Below are positions 38,932 to 47,480 of a stretch of 64,000 nt of DNA, one piece after another (within the stretch, counting starts at the first letter, position 1; every line of letters begins with the position of its first letter). Below the pieces are notes generated by a model. The model was not told the origin of the DNA and did not search any database. It saw nothing but the letters and a program-made list of their open reading frames with translations. The stretch comes from Escherichia coli (lineage in GTDB: Bacteria; Pseudomonadota; Gammaproteobacteria; Enterobacterales; Enterobacteriaceae): the NCBI RefSeq assembly GCF_044324875.1, contig NZ_CP172185.1. The stretch is one strand, 5' to 3'. The position numbers and the translations under genes were made by a program.

Positions 38932-38950
38932 TAAAAAGTATTCAGAATCA

Positions 38951-39027
38951 GGCCGGAGTGTTTAACACTCCGTAAACACGGTCGTACATCCAGCCGGTAG
39001 CCTGGTTCCTTGCATTGAGTGATGTAC
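38951..39027 (+). promoter_or_regulatory. structured iscR-iscS intergenic region (stem-loops preceding the iscS ribosome-binding site)
   Basis: Hairpins CGGAGTG-ttta-ACACTCCG and GTACATC...GATGTAC; established site of RyhB-dependent differential stability of the isc mRNA (coordinates approximate). Confidence 0.45.
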
Positions 39028-39042
39028 GGAGTTTATAGAGCA

Positions 39043-43490: not shown

Positions 43491-43826
43491 ATGCCAAAGA
43501 TTGTTATTTTGCCTCATCAGGATCTCTGCCCTGATGGCGCTGTTCTGGAAGCGAATAGTGGTGAAACCATTCTCGACGTTGCGCTGCGTAACGGTATCGA
43601 GATTGAACACGCCTGTGAAAAATCCTGTGCTTGCACCACCTGCCACTGCATCGTTCGCGAAGGTTTTGACTCGCTGCCGGAAAGCTCAGAGCAGGAAGAC
43701 GACATGCTGGACAAAGCCTGGGGACTGGAGCCGGAAAGCCGTTTAAGCTGCCAGGCGCGCGTTACCGACGAAGATTTAGTGGTCGAAATCCCGCGTTACA
43801 CTATCAACCATGCGCGTGAGCATTAA
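43491..43826 (+). CDS. fdx: [2Fe-2S] ferredoxin (adrenodoxin type)
   Basis: 111-aa [24 protein letters not shown]...; cysteine ligands CxxxxxCxxC...C. Confidence 0.95.
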
Positions 43827-43837
43827 CAGAGGTTAGT

Positions 43838-44038
43838 ATGGGACTTAAGTGGACCGATAGCCGCGAAATTGGCGAAGCACTGTACGATGCGTATCCCGAT
43901 CTTGATCCGAAAACGGTTCGATTCACCGATATGCATCAGTGGATTTGCGATCTGGAAGATTTCGACGACGACCCGCAGGCATCCAACGAGAAAATCCTCG
44001 AAGCGATTTTGTTAGTCTGGCTGGACGAAGCCGAATAA
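43838..44038 (+). CDS. iscX: Fe-S assembly protein IscX
   Basis: 66-aa acidic [27 protein letters not shown]... Confidence 0.9.
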
Positions 44039-44074
44039 TTTCCGCGTCATGCTTCACGCCGCAGATGCGTTGGC

Positions 44075-44200
44075 TGCGCTCGTTCACCCCAGTCACATAG
44101 TTATCTATGCTCCTGGGGCTTCACTCACTTGCCGCGTGATTCGGCCTTTTGGCCTCACCCCTCCGGGGCCAGCGCAAGCGCTGTTCAAAACGCAATGCGT
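44075..44200. repeat. ERIC/IRU repeat element
   Basis: CGCTCGTTCACCCCAGTCAC...ATGCTCCTGGGGCTTCAC match both ERIC primer-site cores (reverse complement of AAGTAAGTGACTGGGGTGAGCG, and ATGTAAGCTCCTGGGGATTCAC); imperfect palindrome in the iscX-pepB spacer. Confidence 0.7.
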
Positions 44201-44282
44201 TTTGTCCTGCAACGCGAATCATTTAGCGGAAAAATCCTGGGGCTGCCAACTGGCGGCCCTTTTACAAAGAAGGATAACTAAA

Positions 44283-45566
44283 ATGACAGAAGCGATGAAG
44301 ATTACCCTCTCTACCCAACCTGCCGACGCGCGCTGGGGAGAAAAAGCGACTTACAGCATTAATAATGATGGCATTACCCTGCATTTGAACGGGGCAGACG
44401 ATCTGGGGCTGATCCAGCGTGCGGCGCGCAAGATTGACGGTCTGGGCATCAAGCATGTTCAGTTAAGCGGTGAAGACTGGGATGCGGATCGCTGCTGGGC
44501 ATTCTGGCAAGGTTACAAAGCCCCGAAAGGCACACGTAAAGTGGAGTGGCCGGATCTGGACGATGCCCAACGGCAGGAACTGGATAACCGCCTGATGATC
44601 ATCGACTGGGTGCGTGACACCATCAACGCACCGGCAGAAGAATTGGGACCATCGCAACTGGCACAGCGTGCTGTTGATCTGATCAGCAACGTCGCGGGCG
44701 ATCGTGTGACTTATCGGATCACCAAAGGTGAAGATCTGCGTGATCAAGGTTATATGGGGCTGCACACGGTCGGACGCGGTTCAGAACGTTCTCCGGTATT
44801 GCTGGCGCTGGATTACAACCCAACTGGCGATAAAGAAGCGCCAGTGTACGCGTGCCTGGTTGGTAAAGGCATCACCTTTGATTCCGGCGGCTACAGCATC
44901 AAACAGACCGCATTTATGGACTCGATGAAGTCGGACATGGGCGGCGCGGCAACGGTTACCGGGGCGCTGGCGTTTGCCATTACGCGCGGACTGAACAAGC
45001 GCGTGAAGCTGTTCCTCTGCTGTGCGGATAACCTGATCAGCGGCAACGCGTTCAAACTGGGCGATATTATTACCTATCGCAACGGTAAAAAAGTTGAAGT
45101 GATGAACACTGATGCGGAAGGGCGTCTGGTGCTGGCCGATGGCCTGATTGATGCCAGTGCGCAGAAACCGGAACTGATCATTGATGCGGCGACCCTCACC
45201 GGGGCGGCGAAAACTGCGCTGGGTAATGATTATCACGCGCTGTTCAGTTTTGACGATGCGCTTGCCGGTCGCTTGCTGGCGAGTGCCGCGCAGGAGAATG
45301 AACCGTTCTGGCGTCTGCCGCTGGCGGAGTTCCACCGCAGCCAGCTGCCGTCTAACTTTGCCGAACTGAACAATACCGGAAGCGCGGCGTACCCGGCAGG
45401 CGCGAGCACGGCGGCGGGCTTCCTGTCGCACTTTGTTGAGAACTATCAGCAAGGCTGGCTGCATATCGACTGCTCGGCGACTTACCGTAAAGCGCCGGTT
45501 GAACAGTGGTCTGCGGGTGCTACGGGACTTGGTGTGCGCACGATTGCTAATCTGTTAACGGCGTAA
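44283..45566 (+). CDS. pepB: aminopeptidase B (M17 leucyl-aminopeptidase family)
   Basis: 427-aa ORF from [15 protein letters not shown]...; M17 motif [12 protein letters not shown]. Confidence 0.93.
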
Positions 45567-45573
45567 ACTAATA

Positions 45574-45673
45574 TGCCGGATGCGGCGTAAACGCCATATC
45601 CGGCCTACAAAGTATTGCAAATTCAACAAATTGTGAATCCCTTGTAGGCCTGATAAGTATGGCGCATCAGGCA
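45574..45673. repeat. BIME: two inverted REP palindromes
   Basis: TGCCGGATGCGGCGTAAACGCCATATCCGGCCTAC and GTAGGCCTGATAAGTATGGCGCATCAGGCAC between pepB and sseB. Confidence 0.85.
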
Positions 45674-45708
45674 CTTGTGCCCCGAACGTTGAATGAATTG
45701 TGGTTCTT

Positions 45709-46485
45709 ATGTCCGAAACAAAAAATGAACTTGAAGACCTGCTGGAAAAAGCAGCAACCGAACCGGCGCACCGCCCGGCCTTTTTCCGTACTCTACTGGA
45801 ATCCACCGTCTGGGTGCCGGGTACGGCGGCGCAGGGCGAGGCTGTGGTTGAAGATAGCGCGCTTGATTTACAGCACTGGGAAAAAGAAGACGGCACCAGC
45901 GTCATTCCTTTTTTTACCTCGTTAGAAGCACTTCAACAGGCGGTTGAAGACGAACAGGCATTTGTCGTAATGCCCGTTCGCACATTGTTTGAGATGACCC
46001 TTGGCGAAACGCTCTTCCTTAATGCCAAACTGCCAACCGGTAAAGAATTTATGCCGCGTGAAATCAGTTTGTTGATTGGTGAAGAAGGAAATCCGCTGAG
46101 CAGCCAGGAAGTACTGGAGGGCGGTGAATCGCTGATATTATCGGAAGTCGCAGAGCCACCAGCACAAATGATTGATTCTCTCACCACCTTATTTAAAACT
46201 ATTAAGCCGGTGAAGCGTGCTTTTATTTGTTCAATTAAAGAGAACGAAGAGTCACAGCCTAATTTACTTATTGGCATTGAAGCCGATGGTGATATCGAAG
46301 AAATTATTCAGGCGGCGGGAAGTGTAGCGACCGATACATTACCTGGCGATGAACCCATCGATATTTGTCAGGTGAAAAAAGGGGAAAAAGGAATTAGCCA
46401 CTTTATTACCGAACATATTGCGCCATTCTATGAACGTCGCTGGGGTGGTTTTTTGCGTGACTTTAAACAGCATCGGATAATCTAA
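45709..46485 (+). CDS. sseB: enhanced serine sensitivity protein SseB
   Basis: 258-aa ORF MSETKNELEDLLEKAATEPAHRPAFF...; synteny between pepB and sseA. Confidence 0.85.
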   Translation: MSETKNELEDLLEKAATEPAHRPAFFRTLLESTVWVPGTAAQGEAVVEDSALDLQHWEKEDGTSVIPFFTSLEALQQAVEDEQAFVVMPVRTLFEMTLGETLFLNAKLPTGKEFMPREISLLIGEEGNPLSSQEVLEGGESLILSEVAEPPAQMIDSLTTLFKTIKPVKRAFICSIKENEESQPNLLIGIEADGDIEEIIQAAGSVATDTLPGDEPIDICQVKKGEKGISHFITEHIAPFYERRWGGFLRDFKQHRII

Positions 46486-46802
46486 AATATGCCGCCCCAA
46501 AGGGCGGCATTCGGGCTTACTTGCTGCTCTGAAGTTTGTTAACCACCAGTAAATTGTTGCCGGAGAGACTCCGGTTATTATTTACCTCGGTTAACAGCGC
46601 ACCAGAAACAATAAGTACGATACAAAAGCACCGTATCTTCATTGTGCGGTCCATGCGAAGACCGCATCACGACAGCACCACTGGCGATATTGCCGCGATA
46701 GCAAGCGCTGAGACGCGCTTGCTCTAACGGTCGCGGAACATCCTTTCCTTAAGCCAGCGCCCGCTTGCGAGACGGCGGAAAGGGCCGCAGTGGATAATAC
46801 AC
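46486..46802 (-). ncRNA. ryfA: RyfA-like RNA copy 1 (putative small-protein toxin mRNA, TimP/RyfA type); 5' end approximate
   Basis: Minus-strand unit between a promoter-like TTGTCA-16-TATTGT (about 46837-46810) and terminator hairpin ATGCCGCCCTTTGGGGCGGCAT plus U-tract (46510-46486); about 310 nt; leader has SD-sequestering CCTTTCC/GGAAAGG stem. Confidence 0.6.
46517..46654 (-). CDS. hypothetical 45-aa small protein with hydrophobic N-terminal segment (candidate type I toxin)
   Basis: ORF MDRTMKIRCFCIVLIVSGALLTEVNNNRSLSGNNLLVVNKLQSSK verified codon by codon; identical in copy 2 except the last residues; no strong Shine-Dalgarno, so start codon uncertain. Confidence 0.35.
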   Translation of the reverse strand: MDRTMKIRCFCIVLIVSGALLTEVNNNRSLSGNNLLVVNKLQSSK

Positions 46803-46865: not shown

Positions 46866-46962
46866 CGCTGAGACGCGCTTGCATTACTACGGTAATACAA
46901 CCTGCTGGAAAGGCCGCGAACCGGACCAGCAACAAAAAACCGCCTGATTTTGGCGGTTTTTT
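46866..46962 (+). ncRNA. putative sRNA 1, divergent from RyfA-like copy 1 (candidate antitoxin RNA, TimR-like)
   Basis: TTGACA (46831-46836) -17 bp- GAGTAT promoter; about 97 nt to intrinsic terminator AAAAAACCGCC-tgatttt-GGCGGTTTTTT (46935-46962); 5' 17 nt identical to the plus strand at 46706-46722. Confidence 0.5.
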
Positions 46963-47079
46963 GTTGTTTAAAGAAAGTGAATTTACATGTTCAAGTAATA
47001 TCTTTTATTGGTTAGTATTTTTAATATTAAGCGAAAATTGTTTATATTTGTCTGAATTCGGACTAATAAGCTAGGTTAT

Positions 47080-47163
47080 TTTATTACCGAACATATTGCG
47101 CCATTCTATGAACGTCGCTGGGGTGGTTTTTTGCGTGACTTTAAACAGAATGGGATAATTTAA
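47080..47163 (+). pseudogene. duplicated 3' fragment of sseB (about 27 C-terminal codons plus stop), non-functional remnant at the repeat junction
   Basis: TTTATTACCGAACATATTGCGCCATTCTATGAACGTCGCTGGGGTGGTTTTTTGCGTGACTTTAAACAG repeated from 46402-46470, followed by a diverged tail and TAA at 47161-47163. Confidence 0.8.
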
Positions 47164-47480
47164 AACATGCCGCCCCAAAGGGCGGCATTCGGGCTTACCT
47201 GCTGTTCTGAAGGTTGTTAACCACCAGTAAATTGTTGCCGGAGAGACTCCGGTTATTATTTACCTCGGTTAACAGCGCACCAGAAACAATAAGTACGATA
47301 CAAAAGCACCGTATCTTCATTGTGCGGTCCATGCGAAGACCGCATCACGACAGCACCACTGGCGATATTGCCGCGATAGCAAGCGCTGTGAAACACCTGC
47401 ATTTACGGCCATGGAACATCCTTTCCTTAAGCCAGCGCCCGTTTGCGAGACGGCGGAAAGGGCCGGTGTCGATAATACGC
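47164..47480 (-). ncRNA. ryfA: RyfA-like RNA copy 2; 5' end approximate
   Basis: Same architecture as copy 1, shifted by 678 bp; terminator hairpin at 47167-47188; leader diverged from copy 1. Confidence 0.6.
47195..47332 (-). CDS. hypothetical 45-aa small protein, paralogue of the 46517-46654 ORF
   Basis: Same ORF as copy 1 with three C-terminal substitutions (K to N, S to N, K to R); frame and length preserved. Confidence 0.35.
   Translation of the reverse strand: MDRTMKIRCFCIVLIVSGALLTEVNNNRSLSGNNLLVVNNLQNSR

Follow-up and report, generated by a model that had tools for sequence, protein, structure and literature searches.

The iscX–pepB spacer and its repeat

The window analysed here is a 64,000-nucleotide (nt) stretch of Escherichia coli DNA (contig NZ_CP172185.1 of assembly GCF_044324875.1), within which the end of the isc operon runs in the order hscB-hscA-fdx-iscX and is followed by a spacer, pepB (+ strand) and sseB. 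The region is 100% identical to E. coli strains such as 118UI and 2012C-4221. The iscX coding sequence (43838–44038, + strand; open reading frame list and RefSeq annotation of 118UI) ends in a TAA stop codon at 44036–44038, and the spacer behind it (44039–44282) is 244 nt long, the length that a first-pass annotation had given. The pepB Shine–Dalgarno sequence AAGGAT (44270–44275) and start codon ATG (44283–44285), both on the + strand, are read from the sequence and agree with the RefSeq pepB start in 118UI. Abutting the iscX stop codon directly is a repeat of the ERIC/IRU family (44039–44232, position 1 being the first base after the TAA), and between this repeat and pepB stands a separate, terminator-like hairpin (44240–44263).

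We hold with near certainty that the repeat is a genuine full-length ERIC/IRU, the relic of a small palindromic mobile element, present in a long form with a nested module. It is an old and degenerate miniature transposable element (MITE) of the ~195-nt ERIC/IRU long form, probably no longer mobile, in what is almost certainly a transcribed spacer. The kind of element is already known: its K-12 version is detectable by any ERIC scan and present in every K-12 genome, and the K-12 RefSeq annotation has no repeat feature in the iscX–pepB spacer.

A full-length ERIC in its long form

The identification rests on an alignment that spans the whole family consensus. With 67 internal nucleotides spliced out, the 127-nt E. 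coli consensus (Delihas 2007, PMC2759123, Table 1a, which gives the Wilson & Sharp 2006 consensus in reverse complement) aligns to the + strand end to end and ungapped at 103 of 127 positions, or 81%, a slightly conservative figure as the splice was one base off at the junction. The first-pass annotation had staked its ERIC/IRU assignment on alignment over the full length of the consensus, and the assignment is borne out by this result. Identity rises to 89% over the 75 nt of the core (44061–44135, E = 1e-19). Both primer-site cores are also matched, as had been claimed: using the sequences that we take to be those of primers ERIC1R and ERIC2, the ERIC1R core (ATGTAAGCTCCTGGGGATTCAC) falls at 44103–44124 on the + strand and the ERIC2 core (AAGTAAGTGACTGGGGTGAGCG) at 44081–44102 on the − strand, each with 19 of 22 positions identical and each as the sole match in the window (0.00 expected from shuffles). 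A search with the consensus found no second ERIC in the 64 kb; across E. coli genomes the same family occupies a median of 13 places per genome (range 2–22), with identities mostly of 80–90%.

The element is built of three parts (99 + 67 + 28 = 194 nt). Its 5′ segment (44039–44137, + strand, consensus positions 1–99) runs from the left terminal repeat (TTTCCGC...) through the left arm and the conserved central inverted repeat with its two primer cores (44081–44124) into the start of the right arm, and is defined by alignment to the consensus and to other alleles as well as by the primer-core matches. The 3′ segment (44205–44232, + strand, consensus positions 100–127) holds the end of the right arm and the right terminal repeat (...GCGGAAA) with an A/U-rich stretch, GAAUCAUUUAG; it is supported by the consensus alignment, by the outer inverted repeat and by the outer stem of the minimum-energy fold. 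Between consensus positions 99 and 100 lies the 67-nt module (44138–44204, + strand), which is absent from an otherwise identical K-12-type allele. This block interrupts the right arm and had been overlooked; it makes the element a long form instead of a plain 127-bp ERIC. The element fills only part of the range first given, 44040–44282, and the range suggested for folding (44075–44200) cuts through it.

The outer inverted repeat pairs 44039–44064 with 44207–44232. Its terminal repeats have diverged from TATACCC/GGGTATA to TTTCCGC/GCGGAAA, with complementarity kept. The element begins with TT and ends with AA, flanked by TAA on the left and AAT on the right; in empty alleles the stop codon (TGA or TAA) runs straight into ATGAAC, and the ends are too diverged for a TA duplication to be identified.

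The nested module is shared with long ERICs elsewhere

The 67-nt module consists of four small hairpins, in order GGCC/GGCC, CCCC/GGGG, CAGCGC/GCGCTG and CAAAACGC/GCGTTTTG (the last two reading CAGCGC/GCGCUG and CAAAACGC/GCGUUUUG as RNA). Beside its junction the window element has G in place of consensus C98. In the minimum-energy fold the module branches off as four hairpins and the outer ERIC stem stays. Its pairing is maintained among relatives: over 22 pairs, 92% are paired, against 20–50% when partners are slid, and there are 25 cells with double changes, values reached in 0 of 500 shuffles.

Within E. coli the module is single-copy, found in 439 genomes at one place each. In 424 of these that place is the iscX–pepB spacer; the other 15 genomes instead have a relative, 85–89% identical, inside a core-deleted ERIC in the waa cluster. 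As E. coli thus has no obvious internal donor, the long allele was probably imported or retained. Metagenome contigs, scanned with the exact pattern of the module, gave 89 matches in 71 contexts, and 51 of the 89 show a left arm, classical core, module and right end with the canonical TATACCC/GGGTATA termini and the same junctions, at many loci. Such core-containing long ERICs measure 194–196 nt, and they have in common with the window element the junction GCCGC(G/C)T, then the module ending in GTTTTG, then TCCTGCAAC. Other metagenome copies of the module are without the classical core, and some have on the other arm a further insertion of similar structure, so that the copies fall into length classes of about 140, 194–196 and 263–272 nt. 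The window element is the long form of ERIC, with the module at a fixed internal site that long ERICs use elsewhere, at numerous loci of other enterobacteria.

A canonical long ERIC on a metagenome contig, at a locus unrelated to iscX, has a module that matches the one of Leclercia at iscX in 66 of 67 positions (98.5%), whereas the arms of these two copies are only 75–79% identical. ERIC copies thus seem to trade modules with one another, through insertion or gene conversion, and the same comparison makes it unlikely that module and host ERIC have diverged together since the separation of the genera.

Two further kinds of derivative came to light. Elements of ~130–145 nt with both arms and the four-hairpin module, and without the classical central palindrome, occur in the rfaJ–waaO spacer of E. 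coli 33E (record L004, 1445–1575), after speB in Klebsiella (L008, 1145–1278) and near gyrA in Salmonella (L009, 1141–1285); the records from Klebsiella and Salmonella are listed in PLSDB as plasmids but are chromosomes or parts of chromosomes. A second insertion type of ~70 nt, ending in ...GTTCAAAT, a hairpin and ATTTGTC, occupies a different internal site from the 67-nt module. It is seen in S. enterica subsp. arizonae (L086), and the metagenome copies L104, L109, L138, L139 and L151 have it on the opposite arm; together with the 67-nt module it makes up the double-insertion ERICs of 263–272 nt.

Alleles within E. coli

A survey of 5426 complete E. coli genomes reveals four forms of the spacer. 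The long form of the window is carried by 424 genomes (~8%; for example, 118UI and 2012C-4221); the plain 127-bp ERIC, identical apart from the 67 nt, by ~2863 (~53%; for example, K-12 and O157:H7); and an empty spacer of 58 nt by ~2137 (~39%; for example, E2348/69 and APEC O2:K1). The fourth is a rearranged singleton in strain HH97 (1 genome; L003, 536–678), in which ~40 nt of unrelated sequence stand in place of the ERIC centre, with 5 nt of the ERIC kept on the left and ~40 nt on the right. We considered this allele as the empty site and rejected it as a one-off rearranged copy, the true empty allele being the 58-nt spacer. Derivation of the 127-bp allele from the long one by deletion between direct repeats was likewise rejected, since the two junctions (GCCGCCT joined to TCC in the short allele; GCCGCGT...TTTTG joined to TCC in the long) fit no clean repeat-mediated event.

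The spacer thus offers a natural series of three alleles (empty, 127 bp and 194 nt) at the junction of an IscR-controlled Fe–S cluster operon and pepB. Such a series is suited to testing in E. coli the effects of ERICs on mRNA fate, which have so far been argued mainly from Yersinia.

The same copy at iscX in other genera

We compared 80 orthologous iscX loci, one per species, 75 of them with a measurable spacer. ERIC-derived sequence, decayed in some, lies directly 3′ of the stop codon and in the same orientation in 13 species, with ends and centre particular to this locus. E. albertii has the 127-bp form and E. whittamii the long form with an identical module; Leclercia adecarboxylata also has a long form. 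Orthologous ERICs are present in Enterobacter asburiae, Enterobacter sp. ENT03 and Citrobacter youngae ATCC 29220, and Kluyvera genomosp. 3 carries an ERIC of which Kluyvera genomosp. 1 keeps a remnant. In Salmonella, S. enterica subsp. arizonae has an ERIC with a different 70-nt insertion at another internal site, and subsp. diarizonae one with a central deletion between TCGCTCAC direct repeats. ERIC-derived sequence is found in two Raoultella species, and a decayed ERIC in Klebsiella indica. The features shared across genera are the ends TTTYYRCGTCATG...CATTTAGYRRAAA, the centre CACA[TG]AGTTATCT[AC]TGC and adjacency to the stop codon. The same copy is present at iscX–pepB in Escherichia, Enterobacter, Citrobacter, Kluyvera, Leclercia, Salmonella (arizonae and diarizonae) and Raoultella.

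The element has been lost from, or was never present in, many lineages: spacers of 75 nt or less with no ERIC make up 43 of the 75 measurable ones and include congeners of carriers. Serratia presents a different picture, with an independent ERIC with canonical TATACCC ends downstream of the conserved hairpin in S. grimesii (L015), S. plymuthica (L049) and Serratia sp. H1w (L053), and a short ERIC in the opposite orientation in the same spacer of S. rubidaea (L073). Read most simply, an ERIC inserted once, long ago, at the stop codon and was then repeatedly lost or exchanged by recombination, with separate insertions in Serratia.

Folding and covariation of the ERIC hairpin

As RNA the long form folds at −98.3 kcal/mol (z-score −4.1) with the outer stem kept, and the 127-bp allele gives a z-score of −3.2. 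An alignment of 13 sequences (11 orthologous copies and two consensus sequences) shows that the ERIC hairpin, of 29 pairs, is intact in 98.1% of pair cells, compared with 36–43% when partners are slid, and that 11 of the 29 pairs have double-sided, compensatory changes; both values are reached in 0 of 500 shuffles. The two strands differ in stability. For the E. coli 127-bp allele the fold is −42.7 kcal/mol in the sense and −64.8 kcal/mol in the antisense orientation (1 and 7 G–U pairs, respectively), and in Escherichia the sense hairpin is less stable than in Enterobacter, Citrobacter or Leclercia. The palindrome is maintained, and nothing singles out the sense RNA as the object of that maintenance. 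A single orthologous ERIC that can be traced across genera, with many compensatory changes, bears on the question of selection as against palindrome mechanics.

A conserved hairpin before pepB

Downstream of the ERIC and outside it, the terminator-like hairpin (44240–44263, + strand) has the form GGGCUGCC-AACU-GGCGGCCC followed by UUUU, folds at −21.7 kcal/mol (z-score −4.05) and ends ~6 nt upstream of the pepB Shine–Dalgarno sequence. Its 8-bp stem has 7 G–C pairs, and with only 4 U it falls below the threshold of a simple terminator scan. Of the 80 orthologous loci, 77 have the motif, some of them in compensatory variants (for example, GGGCTACC/GGTAGCCC), and all E. coli alleles keep the hairpin (GGGCUGCC-N4-GGYRGCCC) and a short U run before the pepB ribosome-binding site. 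A sequence just 3′ of the ERIC, AUCCU (44234–44238), can pair with AGGAU of the pepB Shine–Dalgarno sequence (44271–44275) and would so enclose the terminator-like hairpin; it is confined to ERIC-carrying Escherichia alleles, is absent from empty alleles and other genera, and may be due to chance.

Transcription and a possible role in the isc–pepB message

In E. coli iscR mutants, iscX (yfhJ), pepB and sseB are de-repressed with the isc operon (Giel et al. 2006, as cited in PMC4055776), and in a Yersinia iscR mutant pepB rises 10.1-fold and iscX 10.8-fold (PMC4055776). Co-regulation of pepB with the isc operon implies read-through of the terminator-like hairpin and, as the ERIC lies between the iscX stop codon and this conserved hairpin, read-through of the spacer with the ERIC in the mRNA. 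From its position and the published co-regulation, the ERIC is almost certainly transcribed. A simple promoter and terminator scan of 43700–44500 on both strands found no site, and so lends no support to an internal pepB promoter or an antisense gene.

The element could plausibly regulate isc or pepB mRNA, by analogy with the model that De Gregorio et al. (2005) proposed for Yersinia ERICs adjacent to stop codons, as summarised in PMC2229807, PMC3184786 and PMC10969869, in which RNase E is the agent. Applied to this locus, the ERIC would be transcribed within the IscR-controlled isc-hsc-fdx-iscX(-pepB-sseB) mRNA and its RNA would fold as a long imperfect hairpin, from which the module would branch as four small stem–loops. 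Ribosomes terminating at iscX would cover the left terminal repeat and keep the hairpin open, and the A/U-rich right terminal repeat (GAAUCAUUUAG) might thereby be freed for RNase E. Cleavage there could let the upstream isc message and the pepB message decay independently, lowering the former relative to the latter. Taken whole, an old long-form ERIC in the iscX–pepB spacer, for which this would be the most likely activity if it has any, is the likely explanation of what we see; that a measurable effect of the RNase E-unmasking kind operates at this very spacer is a tentative proposal, which we would sooner doubt than assert.

Several observations weigh against parts of this explanation. Nearly all compensatory changes in the hairpin run from Watson–Crick to Watson–Crick pairs, a pattern that concerted evolution of the palindrome at the DNA level would give equally. 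The strand in the mRNA sense is the weaker-folding orientation in every copy, which argues against selection on the sense RNA. Long ERICs beside stop codons show no orientation bias in a small metagenome sample (9 in the same and 8 in the opposite orientation), a split that is uninformative. In the iscX–pepB copy no terminal TA dinucleotides, as are usual in ERIC, can be recognised. Last, the element is missing from ~39% of E. coli genomes and, among species, from 43 of the 75 spacers that could be measured, so any effect it has must be dispensable.

The strongest alternative is that ERIC and module are neutral remnants of selfish DNA without effect on isc or pepB expression. The hairpin would then owe its preservation to events in the DNA (pairing of the palindrome within one strand and templated repair, or gene conversion with other ERICs) and not to selection on RNA. 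We regard this as a serious possibility, somewhat short of an even chance and about as likely as the RNase E-type effect. Presence or absence of the element is polymorphic within E. coli (~61% against 39%) and in other genera, and copies decay, as in the internal deletion between TCGCTCAC repeats in diarizonae; the double changes leave very few G–U intermediates; the sense strand folds worse than the antisense; and the near-identity of the Leclercia module to its counterpart at an unrelated locus (98.5%, with arms at 75–79%) suggests exchange between copies. Neutrality sits less easily with an orthologous copy held at the exact stop-abutting position in at least 7 genera with 98% of pair cells intact, which is a long survival for a deletion-prone palindrome, or with the experimental precedent from Yersinia for ERIC effects on co-transcribed mRNAs.

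An effect in the opposite sense, in which the ERIC hairpin and the adjacent G+C-rich hairpin block 3′-to-5′ exonucleases and so stabilise the isc-hsc-fdx-iscX message, appears improbable. The ERIC does lie in the iscX 3′ untranslated region upstream of the terminator-like hairpin, its fold is stable, and REP sequences and some ERIC orientations have been proposed to stabilise upstream RNA; but the conserved 8-bp G+C hairpin already provides such a function in empty alleles, the sense-strand ERIC hairpin is imperfect and in the weaker orientation, and its left arm begins at the stop codon, where terminating ribosomes should disrupt it.

We give similarly long odds to a more elaborate scenario, in which the module is an entity in its own right, passing from one ERIC copy to another at a single specific internal site, through site-specific insertion or ectopic gene conversion, and having relatives expressed as a small RNA (sRNA) in Pasteurellaceae (RF02902), and in which the ERIC has long been kept since its RNA tunes the isc:pepB message ratio, the three alleles being functionally different.

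Very unlikely is an antisense gene, with the module encoding a minus-strand sRNA homologous to Aggregatibacter sRNA 22 (Rfam RF02902), since the cmscan match that suggests it (44140–44212, − strand; 45.3 bits against a gathering score of 39.8) comes with no promoter-like or terminator-like site on either strand (scan of 43700–44500), lacks 24 positions of the model and lies in a module that recurs, at a fixed site inside ERICs, at dozens of loci unrelated to one another and in either orientation to the adjacent genes, and would be more simply explained if the Rfam model had been built on the same repeat module. The match appears to reflect the repeat module rather than an sRNA gene, even though it scores above the gathering value, a point for annotators to bear in mind. 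Two other Rfam candidates scored far below threshold and were set aside: V_AS5 (31.6 bits, threshold 96) and CssrA (25.5 bits, threshold 93). Their scores reflect only the ERIC-like sequence that those models contain.

Other RNA and repeat elements in the window

At the iscR–iscS junction, 38932–39041 on the + strand matches the iscRS stability element (Rfam RF01517, 131.7 bits), as expected for an isc operon. The pepB–sseB spacer (45574–45677) contains a REP/BIME pair, a near base-for-base match to the 103-nt RU-3 repeat, which has been reported 3′ of pepB in strain EDL933 (Delihas 2007, PMC2759123). Downstream of sseB the minus strand carries two full-length matches to ryfA RNA (46484–46788 and 47162–47466; 313.6 and 319.2 bits) with an IS128 RNA match between them (46920–47130, − strand, 210.6 bits). 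The K-12 stretch inspected has a single ryfA, with timP; ryfA thus appears to be duplicated in the present strain.

Comparison with known systems

The closest known system is the ERIC/IRU/RU-1 family itself (enterobacterial repetitive intergenic consensus), a 127-bp MITE (Sharples & Lloyd 1990; Hulton et al. 1991; Wilson & Sharp 2006), to which the window element is alike in its 81% end-to-end consensus match and in a central inverted repeat with both primer cores. It shares with the family the 7-bp terminal inverted repeats, an intergenic and almost certainly transcribed position, the fold into a long hairpin and membership of a multi-copy set in the same genome. It differs by its TTTCCGC/GCGGAAA ends, by the lack of a recognisable TA duplication and by the 67-nt module, and its loop-proximal sequence is ATAGTTATCTAT as against TTACTTATGTAA.

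ERICs with internal insertions of ~70 bp that fold on their own were reportedly described by Cromie, Collins and Leach in 1997 and by Sharp in 1997, and also by Wilson and Sharp in 2006. The present element resembles these in a ~70-nt self-folding insertion at a fixed internal site, with junctions the same in 51 long ERICs, and differs in that the module is single-copy and polymorphic in E. coli (424 of 5426 genomes at iscX–pepB).

For a functional parallel, the stop-codon ERICs of Yersinia enterocolitica (De Gregorio et al. 2005) likewise abut a stop codon, with predicted co-transcription with both flanking genes and an A/U-rich 3′ terminal repeat; the window copy differs in being degenerate. 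The module finds a counterpart in the Rfam family RF02902 (AaHKsRNA22), with the same order of four small hairpins, a GAAC linker and a score above the gathering threshold (− strand), although that family belongs to a different bacterial family, 24 of its model positions are absent and the module is nested in an ERIC without gene signals of its own. More broadly, REP/BIME and other MITEs (Correia/NEMIS and RUP) are comparable as small, transcribed intergenic palindromes that are co-transcribed with flanking genes and able to alter mRNA decay. They have no sequence relationship to the window element; a true REP pair, the RU-3 of Delihas, lies in the pepB–sseB spacer instead.

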